Below are positions 72 to 7,968 of a DNA stretch of 7,995 nt, piece after piece (within the stretch, counting starts at the first letter, position 1; every line of letters starts with the position of its first letter). The stretch is taken from the UHGV virus genome UHGV-1440563; one strand, 5' to 3'. Source of the DNA: a virus. The translations under genes were made by a program, and so were the position numbers. The notes beneath the pieces were generated by a model. It had not been told where the DNA came from. It did no database searches and saw only the letters and a program-made list of their open reading frames with translations.

Positions 72-101
72 CAACATAACGAGTCGTACATTATGCGCAC
101 C
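69..101 (-). other. dif-like XerC/XerD recombination site. Minus strand reads GGTGCGCATAA (XerC arm, identical to E. coli dif), TGTACGACTCG (11-nt central region), TTATGTTGAAA (XerD-like arm, 9 of 11 match to TTATGTTAAAT)
   Basis: Reverse complement of 69-101 compared with the E. coli dif consensus GGTGCGCATAA-TGTATA-TTATGTTAAAT recalled from memory. The arms match but the spacer is 11 nt instead of 6. Confidence 0.5.
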
Positions 102-139
102 AATGGTAAGGATGGCGGGAACTGGCGTTACCGGTGCCG

Positions 140-373
140 TCATTGGTCACAGACCGTAATCCACTGGCCCAGGACGTCTTTCAGGCAATGTTGGCATAAA
201 TCCAGTTTTAAGCGATTACTGTCACCAAAAATTGAACCGTATCCAGCTAAGTGATTAACAGACAGAAACTCATTGAACTCAATGTCATCTACCACCGTCT
301 TCGCATGGCGACCACAGCGATCGCAGGTCTTCGCACATAACATTACAGTATCGCTGGATGTGAAAAATTGCAT
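140..373 (-). CDS. Hypothetical 77-aa protein with zinc-ribbon-like Cys pairs (CDRC ... CQHC, about 40 residues apart); function unknown
   Basis: Strong Shine-Dalgarno (GAGGAGA, 5-6 nt before the ATG at 373) seen on the minus strand. Two CxxC pairs in the translation. Terminator-like hairpin downstream. No family recognised. Confidence 0.5.
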   Translation of the reverse strand: MQFFTSSDTVMLCAKTCDRCGRHAKTVVDDIEFNEFLSVNHLAGYGSIFGDSNRLKLDLCQHCLKDVLGQWITVCDQ

Positions 374-490
374 TTTATCTCCTCGTAATGCTGCCGCGCC
401 GAATCAGCAATAACGCTAAAAAAACAGAATTGTTCGGCTTGGCCAACCCCTGACACTAACAAAAGCAAGTTTTGTCATTGTCCGGGGTTA

Positions 491-799
491 TCATATAAAC
501 CAATAGACCGTCCTTACGCCATTCTGGTTATCAATAACATAGCCGCATTGTTTCCTTAAAAATTCTTCTGCTAAATCAATGGCTTTTACAGAAATCTCAT
601 AAGAAGGAAGTAAAGTGTATCCTTTCCCTTCACTGGCAGCTGCTTTGATCGCATCCAGAGTATTATCAATCAGTAACAGAGCAAGTGATGCTTCATTTAC
701 CTGAGCCGAAGAACTTCTGGCTGCAAGTGTCATTGTTTTTGCTTCTTCCGCTGTAATCGTTCGTTCTGCCAGAGCAGATAAAATCCCATAAGAATCCAT
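491..799 (-). CDS. Hypothetical 102-aa protein, Ala/Leu-rich and predicted helical; function unknown
   Basis: ORF begins 20 nt downstream (minus strand) of the hairpin that follows gIV. Weak SD (TGGGGT). Same strand as the phage genes. No family recognised. Confidence 0.45.
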   Translation of the reverse strand: MDSYGILSALAERTITAEEAKTMTLAARSSSAQVNEASLALLLIDNTLDAIKAAASEGKGYTLLPSYEISVKAIDLAEEFLRKQCGYVIDNQNGVRTVYWFI

Positions 800-819: not shown

Positions 820-879
820 GTCCATTTGATGGATAGCGAGCAGGGCTCACGCACCTACCCGCTATCCATCAAAGTGGAC
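820..879 (-). other. Long imperfect hairpin: 19-bp stem (820-838 pairs with 860-879, one bulged nucleotide) and 21-nt loop, straddling the gIV stop codon. Candidate packaging signal or regulatory hairpin; no T-tract follows on the viral strand
   Basis: Inverted repeat GTCCATTTGATGGATAGCG / CGCTATCCATCAAAGTGGAC read directly. In Ff phages the packaging-signal hairpin sits immediately after gene IV. Confidence 0.4.
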
Positions 880-2134
880 GAATGATATGTGCTGTAAGCA
901 AAATATACATAATACGCTGTTCATTGCTGTCTGCCTTGCTACTGAAAATCCAGCCTATAAGAGGAATTTTACTTATAACTGGAACTGAACGCTCGGCATT
1001 GCTGAACGATGAATCGATAAGCCCCCCCAATAACAACGTCTGACCATCCTTAATCTGGACTGTCGTCTGAATCTGGCGCTGATTAGTAATAATATCGGAT
1101 GCCTGATCATCATTGCTGATTGAATCAGCGCGAGTGTCGATAGTCAGAACTAGTTGCCCGTTACCCATGACAACAGGCGTTACCTTGAGAGAAACGCCAA
1201 CATCATGACGCTCGATAGTCTGAAACGGATTATTTACCCCGGCAGATTCGCCCGTTACCTTTCCGGTGATAAACGGCACATTCTTACCTACGGAAATGTA
1301 ACCAGTCTGACCAGACTGAGTAAGAATACGCGGCGTTGAAATCACCTTAGAGCGTGAATTACTCTGGACAGCACGCAGAGACAGCGCCAACACGTTACCA
1401 TCAAAAATACCAAAAGAACCGCCCGCCGTAGAAAGAGCACTACCCAGTGCAGAAGTATTAAAGCCCCCCGCAACCTTATGACCGGATGCAGAACCTGCCG
1501 CAAACGATAAATCAACGCCATCAGACAAGCTGGTTTCAAACATCAGCGACTGAATGAGAACCTGATCGCGGGCAACATCCACAGAATTGATAAAATCGGA
1601 CAGAACCGGCAGCAGCTCGTCAGGCGCAGAAACAATCAGCGAGTTATTGCCTGGATAATCCACGACATTACCACCACCATTAGAATCAAGATAAATTTTA
1701 ATCAGTTGCTGAACATCGGACGATCTAACTTTTGTCAGCTTAAAATTTCTGACCGTAAGCGCCACAGGTACTGGCTGGTAAGATGGCTCAGAAGGAAAAG
1801 TATCATAAGACTGGTTATCAGAATCATCGGAATCCGAAACCATCTGTGAAGGTAATTTAGACGGCAAAGAGACTACCGCAGGATTGCCAGAAAGCATGAC
1901 AAAACCGTTAGCATTCAGAACAGACTTAAAGAAATCATCAATATTTGTTGGATTAACATCAGCATTAAATACGGTTACGTTTCCTTTAATATCAGGATTA
2001 ACAATAACAGGCTTGCCAGTTTTTGAAGAATACCACTGAACAAATGAGCGAACAGATGAATTATTTAAATTAACAGTTTCAGCAGAAACGCAGAATGAAC
2101 AGGCAAATAAAAAAGCAACAATAACAGAGCGCAT
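869..2134 (-). CDS. IV: pIV secretin (phage export channel), with N-terminal signal peptide
   Basis: Translation aligns along its length with M13 pIV, including near-identical C-terminal secretin blocks (VPFITGKVTGESAGVNNPFQTIER, LLLGGL, SKIPLIG). Start moved to the ATG at 2134 (MRSVIVAFLF...) which has an AGGAG SD; the track ORF extends 31 codons further upstream. Confidence 0.9.
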   Translation of the reverse strand: MRSVIVAFLFACSFCVSAETVNLNNSSVRSFVQWYSSKTGKPVIVNPDIKGNVTVFNADVNPTNIDDFFKSVLNANGFVMLSGNPAVVSLPSKLPSQMVSDSDDSDNQSYDTFPSEPSYQPVPVALTVRNFKLTKVRSSDVQQLIKIYLDSNGGGNVVDYPGNNSLIVSAPDELLPVLSDFINSVDVARDQVLIQSLMFETSLSDGVDLSFAAGSASGHKVAGGFNTSALGSALSTAGGSFGIFDGNVLALSLRAVQSNSRSKVISTPRILTQSGQTGYISVGKNVPFITGKVTGESAGVNNPFQTIERHDVGVSLKVTPVVMGNGQLVLTIDTRADSISNDDQASDIITNQRQIQTTVQIKDGQTLLLGGLIDSSFSNAERSVPVISKIPLIGWIFSSKADSNEQRIMYILLTAHIIRPL

Positions 2135-2141
2135 AATAATA

Positions 2142-2516
2142 TTACTCCTGACAGGTAACAGTCTGTAAATAACGGCCTTTTCTAATAACAACACGACAGG
2201 CATCTTTAATATCAACGGAATAACCATCTTTAATCAAATCAAAATACTGATATTTCATGCCTTTTGCATCAACAAACGTAACGGAAACGTCAAAGCCAAG
2301 TTGTGAAAAAGAATTAATAGAAAGTCGGGGTAAGTCACTGGACGAATCAGGCGTTACCGCCCTCGCCTGTTCAGCATAAGCAGATTTAATAGCTGAGATT
2401 TCATCAACATTCTTTCCAGACTGGAGCCAGAAACCAAACGCAAGCCCCAGCGCCAAAAAAGAAAGCATTAATATAAGACGGTTCGATTTGCGAAAATAAA
2501 TTTTAGTGAGGCGCAT
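2142..2516 (-). CDS. XI: pXI, in-frame internal restart product of gene I (C-terminal 124 aa)
   Basis: Internal Met at residue 241 of pI (MRLTKIYFRK) aligns with the M13 pXI start (MKLTKIYLKK). No convincing SD at proper spacing, so called by homology of position only. Confidence 0.5.
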   Translation of the reverse strand: MRLTKIYFRKSNRLILMLSFLALGLAFGFWLQSGKNVDEISAIKSAYAEQARAVTPDSSSDLPRLSINSFSQLGFDVSVTFVDAKGMKYQYFDLIKDGYSVDIKDACRVVIRKGRYLQTVTCQE

Positions 2517-3236
2517 ATAATAACTAAATCCTCTGTGAACAGAAAATTGACCGTGCGTGATAAATGGTGGCAAAAGCGAAAATGCGCCATGAGGATAATT
2601 ATCTGTGAACGCTTGTTTGGTATTGTAAGCAGAATAAAGAGATTTTCCTGTATATATCCATTTATCAACAGTGATTGAATTAACATTATCACCATATTTG
2701 ACAATGCCAAAGTGTACCTTTGGTAAAGAAAATCTCGCCCCTGAAACCAAATTCATAATGGAGCCAACAAAAGGAATGTTTAATTTATCTGAACGGCGAC
2801 AATAAACAACATGCTCAGCAAGCGCCAGACGAGCTTGCTTATCCATTATCGAAATATCCTGAATCAAAAATATAATATCCCAGCCTAATTTTCTGGCATG
2901 TAAAAACCAGTCAATAACAGGTTGTCTGTCTTTATCACCCCATGAGCGGGAATTAAACCAAGTACCACATTCATCAAGTACAAGGAGGCCATTACGGGAT
3001 TCATCGTAAGATGTATTCCCAGTACCAATAGCAAGTAAATCATTTAATGAAGGCTTGTCAGGAATGCGAATAACGCGCGTTTTTTTCGCATAACGCCCAA
3101 CCATAGGCATATTATGCAATTTAAGATCAAGATTAGTGGCAACAGGACAACCCTTAGCAAGTCTTTCCTGTATTCTGGAAACACTAACAAGTGTCTTGCC
3201 TGAGCCTAATTTGCCTGTTACTACATAAACCGCCAT
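2142..3236 (-). CDS. I: pI assembly ATPase (Zot-like, P-loop NTPase)
   Basis: N-terminus MAVYVVTGKLGSGKTLVSV matches M13 pI MAVYFVTGKLGSGKTLVSV (Walker A motif). Collinear similarity continues through LLVLDECGTWFN and HARKLGWDIIFL. The ATG directly abuts the pVI stop. Confidence 0.92.
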   Translation of the reverse strand: MAVYVVTGKLGSGKTLVSVSRIQERLAKGCPVATNLDLKLHNMPMVGRYAKKTRVIRIPDKPSLNDLLAIGTGNTSYDESRNGLLVLDECGTWFNSRSWGDKDRQPVIDWFLHARKLGWDIIFLIQDISIMDKQARLALAEHVVYCRRSDKLNIPFVGSIMNLVSGARFSLPKVHFGIVKYGDNVNSITVDKWIYTGKSLYSAYNTKQAFTDNYPHGAFSLLPPFITHGQFSVHRGFSYYMRLTKIYFRKSNRLILMLSFLALGLAFGFWLQSGKNVDEISAIKSAYAEQARAVTPDSSSDLPRLSINSFSQLGFDVSVTFVDAKGMKYQYFDLIKDGYSVDIKDACRVVIRKGRYLQTVTCQE

Positions 3237-3581
3237 TTAAATCACCCTGTTTGCATAATCAAGAAATTTTTGTTTTAAATCGAAAACAAAAACACTGATA
3301 CGAGTAACCATAATAACGTTAACACACGCCTGAAAATGGTCAGGCAATACAGACGCCATTAAATGGGAGAAATCAGCAGGTAAACCGTTATACATGACCT
3401 CAGCAAGGTACTGCATTAAAAGCGTAACAGTTGTTGTAATTAATGCGACCAATGCAAAGGCGATTAATCCTGTTCTGGTAGCAAGTCGAGCTAAAAAACT
3501 CGCCACATAGCCAATAAACAAAGGAACAAGACCAATAAGAAAACGCAACAATGCAGGAATACCTAATAATAAAGGCATCAC
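3237..3581 (-). CDS. VI: pVI minor coat protein (virion tip, membrane-embedded)
   Basis: [14 protein letters not shown]... aligns with M13 pVI MPVLLGIPLLLRF... and shares the C-terminal block FVFDLKQK vs FIFDVKQK. The ATG overlaps the pIII stop (ATGA); the second Met at 3578 may be the true start. Confidence 0.88.
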
Positions 3582-4855
3582 TCACCCCCTTTGCGAAGCA
3601 ATGAAGTTAAAGAAGTAAAGACATACCAGAACGTAAGGCAATAAAAAACCCATGAAAGAACATCTTTAATAGTCAGTAATTTATCGCAACCAATATCAAT
3701 CTGATAAACCTCTCCGGGAAAAATAATAAAATCAGAGCAGCCGTTACCATTGGGTAAATTAGGCAGCATAGCACCTTTATTTAAAAATGCTTCCCATAAA
3801 GCACCGTGAGAATCCTTTTCAATTCCCAATTCAGAATCAGCCAAAGTAGAAGCGCCATCTAATTCAGAGTCGCCCTTTCCATAACGAGAATCACCACCTG
3901 AAGGGTCAGCAAAACGGCCAGCCCCCCGCGTAAGATTGTTAATGGAATCGTCAAGACGATTTATATTATTCCTGGTTTGTTCATCGGCATTTTTTTTATC
4001 ATCTGATGAAGTGTCTTTCTCCGTTAATTTATCATGAATATCGCTGGCTATTTTGGGTGAAGCACCTTCGATCGCAGACTGAATATCACCTTTAGAAAGA
4101 CTGGAACCACTAGAGCCACCGCCAGAACTACCGCCAGAGCCACCGCCAGAACTACCGCCAGAACTACCGCCAGAGCCACCGCCAGAACTACCGCCAGAAC
4201 TACCGCCGCCAGACTCACCACCACCGGACTCACCACCGCCATTTTGGGGGGTTGAGGGTTTATCAGAGGGGTCAGCTACAGCACCTGTAGGCTTCCATGT
4301 TGCAGCGCAAACAGTACCATCACCCTGACAAACAATGACACCAGTAGCCTCATATTCACAGCCGTTATAGTAGATATAGCGACCACCATCATATGAATCA
4401 ACATTATTAAATACACCTTCTTCTGGCGGCTTCGCTTCACAAATTTCTTCTGGTGTCGGGTCAGTAGGTTTTTCATCAGGAACAGAACGCTGAATATTAC
4501 CAACAATATAAGCCGTTAAAGACCAATATTTATCCTTCTGCCCTGGTGAATCGCTGTAAGTACAATCACCAGTAAAAACAAGACGGAATTCAGAATCAGG
4601 CCAGATACCCTCATAAGTTGGTTTAACCCGAGTAAATACACTCTGAGCACTGGATTTAGCACCCTGACAAGCGGAGGCCTGCATAGCAGCATCAATATAG
4701 TAAACCGTTGTCTTAGAGCCATCCTGATTGGTTATTTGCTTACTTTCAGCGTAGGCAGAACTTTGATAAGTGGATTTAGTAATGCTTTCCCATGACTCAG
4801 CATGTGAAAAAGGAGAAATGAGGACAGCGGAAAGAATTAATATTTTCCTTTTCAT
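3578..4855 (-). CDS. III: pIII adsorption (attachment) protein: signal peptide, divergent N-terminal receptor-binding region, Gly/Ser linker, conserved C-terminal membrane anchor
   Basis: Start set at the internal ATG 4855 ([19 protein letters not shown], compare M13 MKKLLFAIPLVVPFYSHS). Gly/Ser-rich linker. C-terminus NKGAM...NGNG...IGCDKL...FWYVFTS resembles the M13 pIII C-terminal domain. Confidence 0.88.
4100..4240 (-). repeat. Tandem short-period repeats encoding the Gly/Ser-rich pIII interdomain linker (GGGES / GGSS / GGGS units)
   Basis: Reiterated accgccaga(a/g)c units visible on the plus strand; the translation is 47 residues of G, S and E. Confidence 0.85.
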
Positions 4856-4865
4856 AGTAACCCGC

Positions 4866-4891
4866 TTTAATAAAGGGGCAACGAGTGCCCC
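4866..4891 (-). terminator. Intrinsic terminator between gVIII and gIII: stem GGGGCA / TGCCCC (4875-4880 and 4886-4891), 5-nt loop, then TTTATTAAA on the viral strand
   Basis: Read directly. Position corresponds to the terminator that follows gene VIII in Ff phages. Confidence 0.6.
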
Positions 4892-4901
4892 TGAGTGAAA
4901 T

Positions 4902-5144
4902 TCAAACCGCTTTTGAAGAGAATTTTTTGAAAATACGAATGGCAAGCCCAGCGCCAACCACAGCCACAACAACAGGCCATACTTTACCAATGAGATCATT
5001 TGCCTGAGTCAACAAAGCATCCATTGCCTGGCCTGCATAATCAGTACCACCTGTAGCGCCTTCAGCCGCAAAAGAACTTGCAGAAATAAAAAGCGCAGTT
5101 GAAGCCAGAGCAACTTTATATTTAACAGTAGACAGAATTTTCAT
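4902..5144 (-). CDS. VIII: pVIII major coat protein precursor (signal peptide cleaved after SFA; 54-aa mature protein)
   Basis: The ...SFAAEG... cleavage region matches M13, and the basic C-terminus [11 protein letters not shown] matches M13 KLFKKFTSKAS. GGAG SD 9 nt upstream. Confidence 0.92.
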
Positions 5145-5163
5145 AGGAATAACTCCATTAAGG

Positions 5164-5259
5164 TTACATTAATCGGTCAGAAAATGATTTAAATGAACCG
5201 ACCGCATAGAAAAGGGCAAAACCAAAGGTATAAGCCCCGAAGAAATAAACGATATACAT
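5164..5259 (-). CDS. IX: pIX minor coat protein (31 aa)
   Basis: Hand translation MYIVYFFGAYTFGFALFYAVGSFKSFSDRLM resembles M13 pIX (MSVLVYSFASFVLGW...FTRLME). Start overlaps the pVII stop (TAATG). It is the C-terminal part of track ORF 5164-5388. Confidence 0.7.
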   Translation of the reverse strand: MYIVYFFGAYTFGFALFYAVGSFKSFSDRLM

Positions 5260-5345
5260 TAACGAAAGACCCCCGCAGTAATCGCGCCGAGGCCAAAAGA
5301 AATAACGATGCCAGACGCTATCAAAATTTGAATAACATCGTCCAT
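5259..5345 (-). CDS. VII: pVII minor coat protein (28 aa)
   Basis: Not in the ORF track; found by reading the minus strand. MDDVIQILIASGIVISFGLGAITAGVFR resembles M13 pVII (...ISVVLCFALGIIAGGQR). The ATG lies 2 nt after the gV stop, in the expected position. Confidence 0.7.
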   Translation of the reverse strand: MDDVIQILIASGIVISFGLGAITAGVFR

Positions 5346-5347
5346 AT

Positions 5348-5665
5348 TTAACCTTTGATCTCTGCGATGCCACCATCGGAAGAAACATTATAAGTTACAC
5401 CTTCCCTACCCTCCATTGACCACGCACGGACATAGACAGGAATTTGAACTAATTTCCCAATGAAAGCATTCGCCTGGTTCATTAGACCTGCGTTAACGAG
5501 AGCCTGAGAAACTCGAATAATAATTTGATCCTGCTTTGTACCACCAAAACCATCAGGTATTTCAAGGCCAATACCAATTTCATTATAATAGCCCTGACCA
5601 TTAACTTTATTACGTTGGCGGGCTCCCAACATTTTACCCTTAACGAAAAGACCATAATTAGACAT
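5348..5665 (-). CDS. V: Putative ssDNA-binding protein in the gene V position; only weak resemblance to Ff pV
   Basis: Called mainly on synteny (between gII and gVII) and a good SD (AAGGAAAG). Local motif GQGYYNEI vs M13 GKPYSLNEQ. At 105 aa it is longer than Ff pV. Confidence 0.55.
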   Translation of the reverse strand: MSNYGLFVKGKMLGARQRNKVNGQGYYNEIGIGLEIPDGFGGTKQDQIIIRVSQALVNAGLMNQANAFIGKLVQIPVYVRAWSMEGREGVTYNVSSDGGIAEIKG

Positions 5666-5676
5666 ATTACTTTCCT

Positions 5677-5991
5677 TTAATGCCAGCTACTGGCGTGCGA
5701 AATACGGTTGTAATCGAAAATAAAACCTTTCTCATAAATCCATAAGGGGATTTCCGCTGGCTTGGCTTCCAGCGTTCTTATTAGCGGAACAACGTTATTA
5801 GAGTCTGGTGAATCACAATAGAAATTAATATCGATACCGAACGAAAGCAATTCTCTTCTATGGCGATAAAAAGTGTTATGAGGTAACATTTCTTTCATGT
5901 TAGCCCCTTGTTTCCAAAGTAAATAAGTTGACTGTATTTTTCTTGGCAGTTTCGTTATTTTTTCATCACTTAAAATAGCATTCTGATTCAT
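5677..5991 (-). CDS. X: pX, in-frame internal restart within gene II (C-terminal 104 aa)
   Basis: Internal ATG at 5991 preceded by GGGAGA SD. MNQNAILSDEK... aligns with the M13 pX start MNIYDDSAVLDA... Confidence 0.6.
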   Translation of the reverse strand: MNQNAILSDEKITKLPRKIQSTYLLWKQGANMKEMLPHNTFYRHRRELLSFGIDINFYCDSPDSNNVVPLIRTLEAKPAEIPLWIYEKGFIFDYNRISHASSWH

Positions 5992-6729
5992 TTCTATTCT
6001 CCCTACATATTCAGAGAATAATTGACGTGGTGTTTTCATATTCCAGTTAGCGCCAAGCGTTAAATTTAAATCAATAAGCTCAGTTGTTCTTAATGTTAAT
6101 TCAATACGTAATTTATCTTTCGTCCAGTCCAGTAACCCGGCTCGTACAAACTCTTCGGCTATCTGGTGCCCTTTTTTACCAGAAACGTGTTCATCATATT
6201 TTGAATAAAATTTCAGACTCCATCGACGGGAGTTTTTACCTAAATAAACTGTACCGCCTTTCCCACATGCGCGACCATGGCGTGTTTTAGCTTTAAATTC
6301 GGCGGCATAAAGCCATGATCTGACATTTTCCAGCGTAGATAATGAATACATGTAATTAATGTCAACACGTGAAATTTTATACTGACCTGCCATAACGGCT
6401 TTATAAGACGCTAAATCATGAGGAATATTCAATAAGGATAAAATCCTGGCATAGACCGTCAACATGAGCCCTTGTATATCATCCGACCCAACAACAGAAT
6501 GCCCCTGCAGAAACTTGGAAGGATTACCATCAATGTACAAATGTGTCGCTTTACCTTCGCCATTAGATCCTATCGATCGTACTTTCATCGTTGCTTCATG
6601 CGAGCCGCGAACAGTCAGTCGCTTAACGGTTTCCCACTCAATTGCACCGTCAGCATCAACGCTGACAACACTCCCCGCCGGAAGCGGTTTGTGTGTGCAA
6701 GGGAAAATCCCGGTAAGCCAATCGATCAC
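5677..6729 (-). CDS. II: pII rolling-circle replication initiator (nickase)
   Basis: Collinear similarity to M13 pII (LQGHSVVGSDD vs LQGHNVFGTTD; NNVVPLIRT vs NNVVPLVRF). Preferred start is GTG at 6729 (V-I-D-W, compare M13 M-I-D-M) with GAGGA SD 7 nt upstream. The track ORF starts at an upstream GTG (6771) that has no SD. Confidence 0.85.
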   Translation of the reverse strand: MIDWLTGIFPCTHKPLPAGSVVSVDADGAIEWETVKRLTVRGSHEATMKVRSIGSNGEGKATHLYIDGNPSKFLQGHSVVGSDDIQGLMLTVYARILSLLNIPHDLASYKAVMAGQYKISRVDINYMYSLSTLENVRSWLYAAEFKAKTRHGRACGKGGTVYLGKNSRRWSLKFYSKYDEHVSGKKGHQIAEEFVRAGLLDWTKDKLRIELTLRTTELIDLNLTLGANWNMKTPRQLFSEYVGRIEMNQNAILSDEKITKLPRKIQSTYLLWKQGANMKEMLPHNTFYRHRRELLSFGIDINFYCDSPDSNNVVPLIRTLEAKPAEIPLWIYEKGFIFDYNRISHASSWH

Positions 6730-6771
6730 GAATAAATCCTCAAAATTGCAAAAATGACGACTTACTAACAC

Positions 6772-6898: not shown

Positions 6899-7081
6899 AT
6901 GGCAAAGCGCACGACTTATAACGTGACGGAAGAAAGAAAAATGAAACTAGAACGACTGGCTATAAATGCCAGTGTAAAACTAGGAAAAACAATTACATGG
7001 ACAGAGATTTTAGGTTATCTGATTGATAACTACTCTAAAGATGCAGCAGAAGATCTCATGTCTGCCAAACAAAAGGATTAA
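6899..7081 (+). CDS. Small (60 aa) putative ribbon-helix-helix (CopG/Arc-like) DNA-binding protein
   Basis: Pattern of short polar/hydrophobic strand (TTYNVT), helix (EERKMKLERLAINA), Gly-containing turn and second helix (ITWTEILGYLIDNY) resembles CopG-type RHH repressors. Only a weak SD. Divergent from gII, with the repeat array between them. Confidence 0.5.
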   Translation: MAKRTTYNVTEERKMKLERLAINASVKLGKTITWTEILGYLIDNYSKDAAEDLMSAKQKD

Positions 7082-7233: not shown

Positions 7234-7968
7234 ATGATCACTATAGAAGAAGCAACATCGGTCCATGAATATTTAACAAATTACTATCAAAACTCTGATG
7301 ATCCTATCTCTCCTCCGGGAATAAAAAACATAGAGCTTTTAGAGTCTGCCATAGCAAGACCTTTTATGACCATGAACAGAAAGGATGTCTATCCAGATGA
7401 TTTAGATAAAGCCGCAGCTCTATTTCATGGTGTCATATCCAACCACTGTTTCCATAATGGTAATAAAAGAACAGCACTTCTACTAACCATGTGCTTTTTA
7501 GACCGAGCTGGATATTGGCTGGATAAGTGTGATGACCTGCAACTCTTTGAATTTACAAGAAGTGTTGCGGCACATGAGATATGTAAAAATAGAATTGATG
7601 AAATAAAAACAATCAAGGCATTTTTCCGAAGTAATTCACGGAAGAAAAAAATCACAGATGAACAATTGAGTTTTATTGCATTAAGCAGGCATCTAACCAA
7701 CGCAGGTTTCAATATAGAAGACGATGGTGACTATTACTCTATCTTTAAAAATAATAAAAGATATACAAAAATAATAAAAAAAGGCGCATCAGGACATGAA
7801 AAATACGATCCACAATACATAAAATCCCTTAGAAAAAGATTGCTTCTTACCCCGAAGTATGGATGGGATAGCATAAGGTTTTATCAATTATATTCATCAT
7901 TGACGGAAAACATTGGTGAATTATTACGTTTACGTGGAGAGGTAATGGACTGGCTTGCAAAAATATAA
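7234..7968 (+). CDS. Doc/Fic-family protein (death-on-curing-like toxin domain, residues about 1-125) fused to an unassigned Lys-rich C-terminal region of about 120 aa
   Basis: Motif HCFHNGNKR (residues 71-79, nt 7444-7470) fits the Doc signature HxFx(D/N)(A/G)NKR. The surrounding region aligns with P1 Doc as I recall it (...PGI.N.ELLESAIARP..., NKRTALL..., ...AAHEI). GGAAG SD 6 nt upstream. Confidence 0.8.
   Translation: MITIEEATSVHEYLTNYYQNSDDPISPPGIKNIELLESAIARPFMTMNRKDVYPDDLDKAAALFHGVISNHCFHNGNKRTALLLTMCFLDRAGYWLDKCDDLQLFEFTRSVAAHEICKNRIDEIKTIKAFFRSNSRKKKITDEQLSFIALSRHLTNAGFNIEDDGDYYSIFKNNKRYTKIIKKGASGHEKYDPQYIKSLRKRLLLTPKYGWDSIRFYQLYSSLTENIGELLRLRGEVMDWLAKI

Follow-up and report, generated by a model that had tools for sequence, protein, structure and literature searches.

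Gene III of the virus genome UHGV-1440563, whose whole analysed stretch of 7,995 nucleotides is called the window below, very probably codes for g3p (pIII), the adsorption and virion-cap protein of a UPΦ-type, Lineavirus-related, dif-integrating filamentous phage, with a domain layout of the IKe type, TolA as the co-receptor and a conjugative pilus as the primary receptor. All sequence and structure criteria tested place the window g3p in the IKe/I2-2-type G3P family. The position of the gene, which had been proposed from the letters alone (the sequence-only reading), was borne out by an intact open reading frame (ORF) at 3578-4855 of the minus strand, and the same start and stop carry the label 'attachment protein' in approximately 99% identical E. 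coli prophages. The protein is already catalogued by Pfam, PHROGs and NCBI (as 'attachment protein'); phrog_4150 matches it over its full length (E 4.8e-273), no NCBIfam model covers it, and its exact sequence occurs in a single database record (JGI/ENA). The finding is an ordinary one, since protein family, both N-terminal domains, phage group and linker polymorphism had all been published or catalogued beforehand. The gene and the parts of its product are as follows.

3578-4855, minus strand: gene III (g3p/pIII attachment protein), 425 amino acids (aa) plus a TGA stop
4799-4855, minus strand: signal peptide, residues 1-19, aligned with the annotated 19-aa sig_peptide of IKe
4481-4798, minus strand: pilus-binding domain (PBD) of the IKe type, residues 20-125, from Pfam, PDB and the AlphaFold2 model
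4448-4480, minus strand: Pro/Glu-rich connector, not a Gly linker, residues 126-136, read from the sequence
4277-4447, minus strand: TolA-binding domain (TBD), homologue of Ff N1, residues 137-193, from PDB, Pfam, BLASTP and Foldseek
4100-4240, minus strand: single Gly/Ser/Glu linker, residues 206-252 (47 aa), an uninterrupted G/S/E run of hypervariable length
3581-4099, minus strand: C-terminal domain (virion cap and membrane insertion), residues 253-425, by homology
3596-3658, minus strand: hydrophobic membrane anchor, residues 400-420, followed by RKGGE; from the sequence, an AlphaFold2 helix at 396-424 and alignment with the M13 anchor

The two N-terminal domains match, in the same order, the two solved domains of the IKe G3P: among PDB sequences, residues 20-128 retrieved 4EO0 (E 1.2e-25) and residues 130-195 retrieved 4EO1 (E 3.8e-25). 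PF21443 ('G3P, pilus binding domain') was found on residues 22-125 with an E value of 9.1e-25, over the curated cut-off, and PF05357 (Phage_Coat_A) on residues 135-176 with an E value of 8.8e-6 (25.8 bits against a cut-off of 20.8 bits). Residues 137-193 also match the N1 structures of fd/M13 by sequence (1fgp, E 1e-10; 1tol, E 1.6e-14), and the cryo-EM chain of f1 pIII, 8b3o, is matched by residues 359-422 (E 8e-5). The likeness of the signal peptide to that of M13, part of the sequence-only reading, did not reach significance (E 0.43); the peptide is nevertheless canonical (MKRK, a hydrophobic core, SHA|E) and aligns with that of IKe, and by homology the cleavage site would lie after residue 19. 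In the 28 homologues aligned, eight cysteine positions are retained: C63 (invariant) and C98 (nearly invariant) in the PBD, C139, C166, C176 and C183 (all invariant) in the TBD, and C373 and C390 (both invariant) in the C-terminal domain. We take the last six to correspond to the fd pairs C7-C36, C46-C53 and C354-C371.

A structure model was computed with AlphaFold2 from an alignment of 28 sequences, and its comparison with the PDB by Foldseek gave the same picture. The model has predicted local distance difference test (pLDDT) values of 87-95 in the PBD, 75-87 in the TBD and below 50 in the linker. The top Foldseek match was 4EO0, the IKe pilus binding domain (E 9.4e-13, target-normalised template modelling (TM) score 0.95, root mean square deviation 1.1 Å, 45% identity), while the TBD retrieved the N1 structures of fd, M13 and IF1 (1tol, 1fgp, 2x9a) at a Foldseek probability of 1.0. 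The N2 domain of fd (9g8e) had no match in the model (probability 0.44, TM 0.31). The receptor-binding region, which had been taken for a divergent stretch and for which structure prediction had been proposed, thus turns out to be a known arrangement, PF21443 followed by an N1-type TBD, with confidently predicted known folds in both domains.

In pairwise BLASTP comparisons with the proteins of IKe, If1 and M13, the window g3p was 50% identical to that of IKe over the full length (E 1e-135); for I2-2 g3p the identity was 54.8% by tblastn and approximately 50% over the full length. Domain order, domain count, the single Gly-rich linker and the cysteine pattern are all as in the IKe and I2-2 proteins, and the Pro/Glu-rich connector is also present in IKe, I2-2 and PEar. 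The TBD is 72-77% identical to those of IKe and I2-2, and the C-terminal domain is 52% identical to that of IKe overall and 66-69% identical to IKe/I2-2 over the last 70 aa. The PBD, in contrast, is only 44-45% identical to either, whereas the PBDs of IKe and I2-2 share 91% with each other. The linkers differ in composition (Gly/Ser/Glu in the window, Gly/Thr/Asp/Ser in IKe/I2-2), and so do the lifestyles, as the window phage is temperate (Xer/dif) and both IKe and I2-2 are non-integrating.

The M13 pIII gave only two significant BLASTP segments, N1 (M13 residues 23-79 against window residues 137-191, 51% identity, E 1e-12; 45-51% to M13 N1 overall) and a C-terminal one (M13 358-420 against window 359-421, 35% identity, E 3e-12), the latter in agreement with the C-terminal resemblance that had been noticed before. 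Over the whole C-terminal domain the identity to M13 is 22%, and over the last 70 aa it is 31%. Residues 20-128 have no significant match in M13 pIII, and M13 N2 has no sequence counterpart in the window g3p. The earlier view that the N-terminal ~200 residues are unlike M13 therefore holds for residues 20-128 and fails for 137-191; close alignment of this region with M13 N1 and N2 had been named as the result that would overturn it, and N1 aligns while N2 does not. The Ff protein shares with the window g3p the signal peptide, the N1-type TBD, a Gly-rich tether, and the C-terminal cap and anchor with its cysteine pair. It differs in having N1 first, where the N1-type domain of the window protein is second, and in possessing two Gly-rich linkers and the F-pilus-binding N2 domain, where the window protein has one linker and, in both sequence and fold, no N2; the fold of the window PBD is unrelated to the pilus-binding domain of Ff. 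The G3P of If1, a phage specific for IncI1 pili, matches only in N1 (31% identity, E 1e-6) and in the C-terminal domain (30%, E 4e-11), its domain order is that of Ff, and its pilus-binding region, large and unrelated, is flanked by two linkers. Alignment with IKe, I2-2 and If1, which had been suggested as a check, thus joins the protein to the first two over its full length and to the third only in part.

The single Gly/Ser linker of 47 residues reported by the sequence-only reading was confirmed as the G/S/E run at 206-252, with no second Gly-rich linker in g3p. The DNA beneath it is a perfect tandem repeat at 4118-4207, readable as 36 nt x 2.5 or 12 nt x 7.5. The protein belongs to a 682-member cluster at 90% identity (E. 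coli, Salmonella, Citrobacter); in the members sampled, the linker measures 25-64 residues and the rest of the protein has just 0-6 substitutions. Such variation in linker length has been described before: among UPΦ proteins g3p varies most, 229 genomes having yielded 95 variants that differ mainly in the number of 'GGGES' repeats (PMC7307601). The window allele is unusual only in expanding a 12-residue unit instead of GGGES. The linker would be a flexible tether only, whose length may drift through repeat slippage.

Module conservation was also measured over 55 more distant g3p homologues, each compared with the window protein. The PBD is by far the most divergent module (21-58% identity), against 57-96% for the TBD and 59-100% for the last 70 residues, and at least eight PBD sequence types with 13-58% mutual identity occur on otherwise conserved proteins. 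The PBD behaves as a swappable cassette in these alignments because several homologues are mosaics. In P0053 the TBD is 97% identical to that of I2-2 and the C-terminal domain 99% identical to that of P0026, but the PBD shares just 25-28% with either; in P0023 and P0051 the TBD is 88% identical to that of the window and the PBD only 28-32%; and P0015 combines a PBD (85%) and a C-terminal domain (91-100%) like those of the window with a TBD resembling that of IKe (68%). Judged from these sequences, the PBD is the fastest-diverging and recombinationally swapped module of the g3p family. A separate protein of 508 aa from E. coli, P0056, which is annotated as a secretin, carries the PF21443 PBD fused to secretin domains; this is probably a chimera produced by assembly or annotation across a tandem junction. 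A similarity between pIV and pIII has also been noted in the PEar paper.

By analogy with IKe and Ff, the g3p would be exported via Sec, anchored in the inner membrane by its C-terminal helix, and, together with pVI, would cap the virion end that is last to emerge from the cell. During infection of a new host, the PBD at the N-terminus would bind the tip of a retractile pilus of the conjugative type, whose retraction would bring the TBD to domain III of TolA in the periplasm; the C-terminal domain would then drive membrane insertion and uncoating. The IKe domains reportedly fold independently, with a TolA site that is always exposed and binds weakly. The TBD of the window protein would probably also be exposed at all times, as in IKe, since the protein has no N2 by which the site could be masked.

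What this layout implies for the receptors differs between the two domains. The sequence-only reading expected both pilus type and co-receptor use to depart from those of Ff. Its first half is upheld by the comparison, since the primary receptor should be a conjugative pilus different from that of Ff because the PBD is unrelated to the F-pilus-binding N2; its second half is not, and the co-receptor is most likely TolA, unchanged with respect to Ff, because the TBD is the best conserved module (72-77% to IKe/I2-2, 45-51% to M13 N1, four cysteines invariant). The primary receptor is probably not the same as the N and I2 pili of IKe either, because the PBD is only ~45% identical to that of IKe. 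Among the natural carriers, a Salmonella isolate in which the phage is present as a free circle of 7,938 bp has an IncI1/B/O plasmid of the MPF_I type. Five sampled prophage-bearing E. coli strains have IncF, IncHI2, IncC and IncQ1 plasmids, and MPF_I, IncN and IncI2 are absent from the first two plasmids of each (0/5), in a small sample and with the reservation that a prophage outlives a plasmid. For comparison, the IncI1-type pilN gene occurs in 732 of 5,426 E. coli genomes (13.5%).

Two points weigh against the proposed assignment of gene III. The linker and the monomeric C-terminal domain were modelled with low confidence, and UPΦ filtrates infected neither three IncI-bearing strains nor the I2-2 host JE-1 (PMC7307601), even though the authors of that study had guessed that IncI pili were used; a literature search found no follow-up on the UPΦ receptor. 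The laboratory failure to establish new infections, along with a premature stop in gene III of one UPΦ genome (both PMC7307601), could also be read to mean that gene III is decaying within a cryptic prophage and has lost its function in infection. We regard this as very unlikely: the ORF is intact, sampled members of the 682-member cluster have accumulated only the 0-6 substitutions outside the linker, the structural cysteines are all conserved, the phage exists as a free circular replicative form and in tandem arrays typical of active Xer-integrating phages, and release of UPΦ virions was detected by the polymerase chain reaction in filtrates (PMC7307601). Hardly credible is the notion that the protein is an Ff-like pIII whose entire N-terminal ~200 residues form a novel receptor-binding region, so that both pilus receptor and co-receptor differ from those of Ff. 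The absence of a significant M13 match for residues 20-128 and the presence of one Gly linker only are in its favour, but it is contradicted by the 51% identity of residues 137-191 to M13 N1 (E 1e-12), by the matches of both domains to solved IKe domains at about E 1e-25, by the Foldseek confirmation of the fold, and by the conservation of the TBD above that of any other module.

A question of a different kind is whether a protein with the favoured architecture might have a PBD that retains the specificity of IKe/I2-2 for IncN/IncI2 pili, which would make the phage a temperate IKe. Such retained specificity fits the shared PBD fold with its 44-45% identity to IKe/I2-2, and the listed IKe hosts are carriers of IncN or IncI2 plasmids whose pilus tips are used (PMC7911639, Table 1). 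We nevertheless consider it rather unlikely, given the 91% identity between the PBDs of IKe and I2-2 as against 44-45% for that of the window, the finding that UPΦ901 filtrate gave neither plaques nor integration on JE-1 (PMC7307601) and, as weak evidence, the plasmids of the five E. coli strains. An extension of the assignment of gene III as an IKe-type g3p is that the PBD is an exchangeable specificity cassette and that the pilus bound by the UPΦ type is distinct from those of the N and I2 type used by IKe, possibly one so far unlinked to filamentous phages; we put this forward tentatively, at somewhat less than even chances.

The window is a complete dif-integrating inovirus of ~8 kb, with a complete inovirus core gene set, all on the minus strand. 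Besides gene III, it comprises the following.

5677-6771, minus strand: pII
5348-5665, minus strand: pV, with a PF17426 match
5259-5345, minus strand: pVII
4902-5144, minus strand: pVIII
3237-3578, minus strand: pVI
2142-3236, minus strand: pI
869-2134, minus strand: pIV
3578-3581, minus strand: TGATG overlap of the gene III stop and the gene VI ATG (shared base 3578), from the sequence and the annotation of identical prophages
4868-4892, minus strand: GC-rich hairpin followed by UUUAUU in the gap between genes VIII and III, a candidate attenuating terminator on weak evidence

The proteins pVII, pVIII, pIII, pVI, pI and pIV are 50-73% identical to those of IKe/I2-2, about equally like both phages, whereas the replication module of pII and pV is I2-2-like (56% and 40%) and has either no match in IKe or one with an E value above 1e-6; this difference indicates a module exchange. 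The TGATG overlap suggests that genes III and VI may be translationally coupled. The hairpin at 4868-4892 has a 7-bp stem and a free energy of -12.1 kcal/mol (z = -1.3, marginally better than shuffled sequence), and IKe has an annotated stem-loop at the equivalent position. Within 3400-5200, a promoter scan found none, and a scan for consensus terminators found one terminator-like site, inside gene VIII, and did not flag the hairpin; no Rfam family scored above threshold in the window.

The window phage fits the published UPΦ group in the described features that were compared. According to Shapiro & Putonti (2020, Virus Evol, PMC7307601), UPΦ viruses are relatives of IKe and I2-2 that integrate at dif in tandem repeats, and their hosts are E. 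coli, Salmonella, Klebsiella, Y. enterocolitica and C. koseri. Two novel ORFs occupy what is intergenic sequence in IKe, and the accessory ORFs, which run in reverse orientation, are variable. Tandem integration in the dif region, Lineavirus-like structural and assembly genes, extra ORFs, variable cargo, hosts and the repeat variation of g3p all agree with the window, which differs in its cargo and in its expanded repeat unit (against GGGES). Of 5,426 complete E. coli genomes, 47 contain prophages approximately 99% identical to the window, and 48 contain the PBD-coding DNA at 98.7-100% identity. E. coli UM146 carries its copy next to hipBA, in the dif region, and E. coli KFu015 has three full tandem copies (1-19985 of the retrieved locus). 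A tandem array is also present in E. coli EC5502 (NZ_CP092647.1), with 15-17 separate matching places, and in E. coli KE48 one prophage copy is located not in the chromosome but in the 385-kb plasmid NZ_CP141085.1 (352300-359301). Identity with CUS-1/YpfΦ, suspected from the dif-side location in UM146, was rejected: UPΦ genes II and V are over 85% identical to those of YpfΦ, with below 20-30% identity to YpfΦ otherwise (PMC7307601), and the structural genes of the window are IKe/I2-2-like.

A GC-rich hairpin is flanked by two inverted dif-like sites, at 8-34 and 75-101. In reverse complement, the site at 75-101 starts with GGTGCGCATAATGTA, a perfect XerC arm as seen by eye, and the UM146 prophage junction maps to window 87-109. 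Exact E. coli dif had no match in the window within 3 mismatches, only diverged dif-like arms being present. The pair of sites looks like an attP of the CTXΦ/YpfΦ style that would fold in single-stranded DNA. At 87-97% identity, positions 6-127 also match a stretch without annotated features in ~70 conjugative plasmids (from Klebsiella, E. coli, Enterobacter and Pantoea), which may represent what is left of a Xer site or an attP-like module held in common.

Two conserved ORFs of 77 and 102 aa, at 140-373 and 491-799 (both minus strand), occupy the place of the intergenic/origin region of IKe and are the 'novel genes' of UPΦ; they match only phrog_5435 and phrog_4115, families without an assigned function, and are kept in all copies compared. 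The cargo at 7234-7968 (plus strand) encodes a 244-aa Doc/Fic 'death-on-curing' toxin, with TIGR01550 on residues 3-116 followed by an extension of ~125 aa (phrog_18015), and no Phd-type antitoxin is recognisable beside it. Three unrelated ORFs stand in its place in the UM146 prophage. A 60-aa ORF at 6899-7081 (plus strand), upstream of the toxin, is more likely to be a phage regulator than a dedicated antitoxin because it is retained in both cargo variants. A search of genome contigs, with one genome per species, found four g3p loci. A 95%-identical g3p was found at JARKOR010000214.1 8001-9215, on a 25-kb contig of a metagenome genome binned as 'Candidatus Nanosynbacter'; this contig is almost certainly a binning error and an enterobacterial prophage.

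UPΦ prophages are carried by ~1% of complete E. coli genomes and by many Salmonella, and the specificity for IncN/IncI2 pili should not be assumed for g3p of this type. The contrast between the conserved TBD and the diverged PBD (~45% to IKe) indicates which domain to swap or to use as a probe. If the PBD is indeed an exchangeable specificity cassette, a distinct UPΦ pilus would account for the lack of infection on IncI hosts, and PBD typing could predict the plasmid-bearing bacteria that are attacked by each phage.

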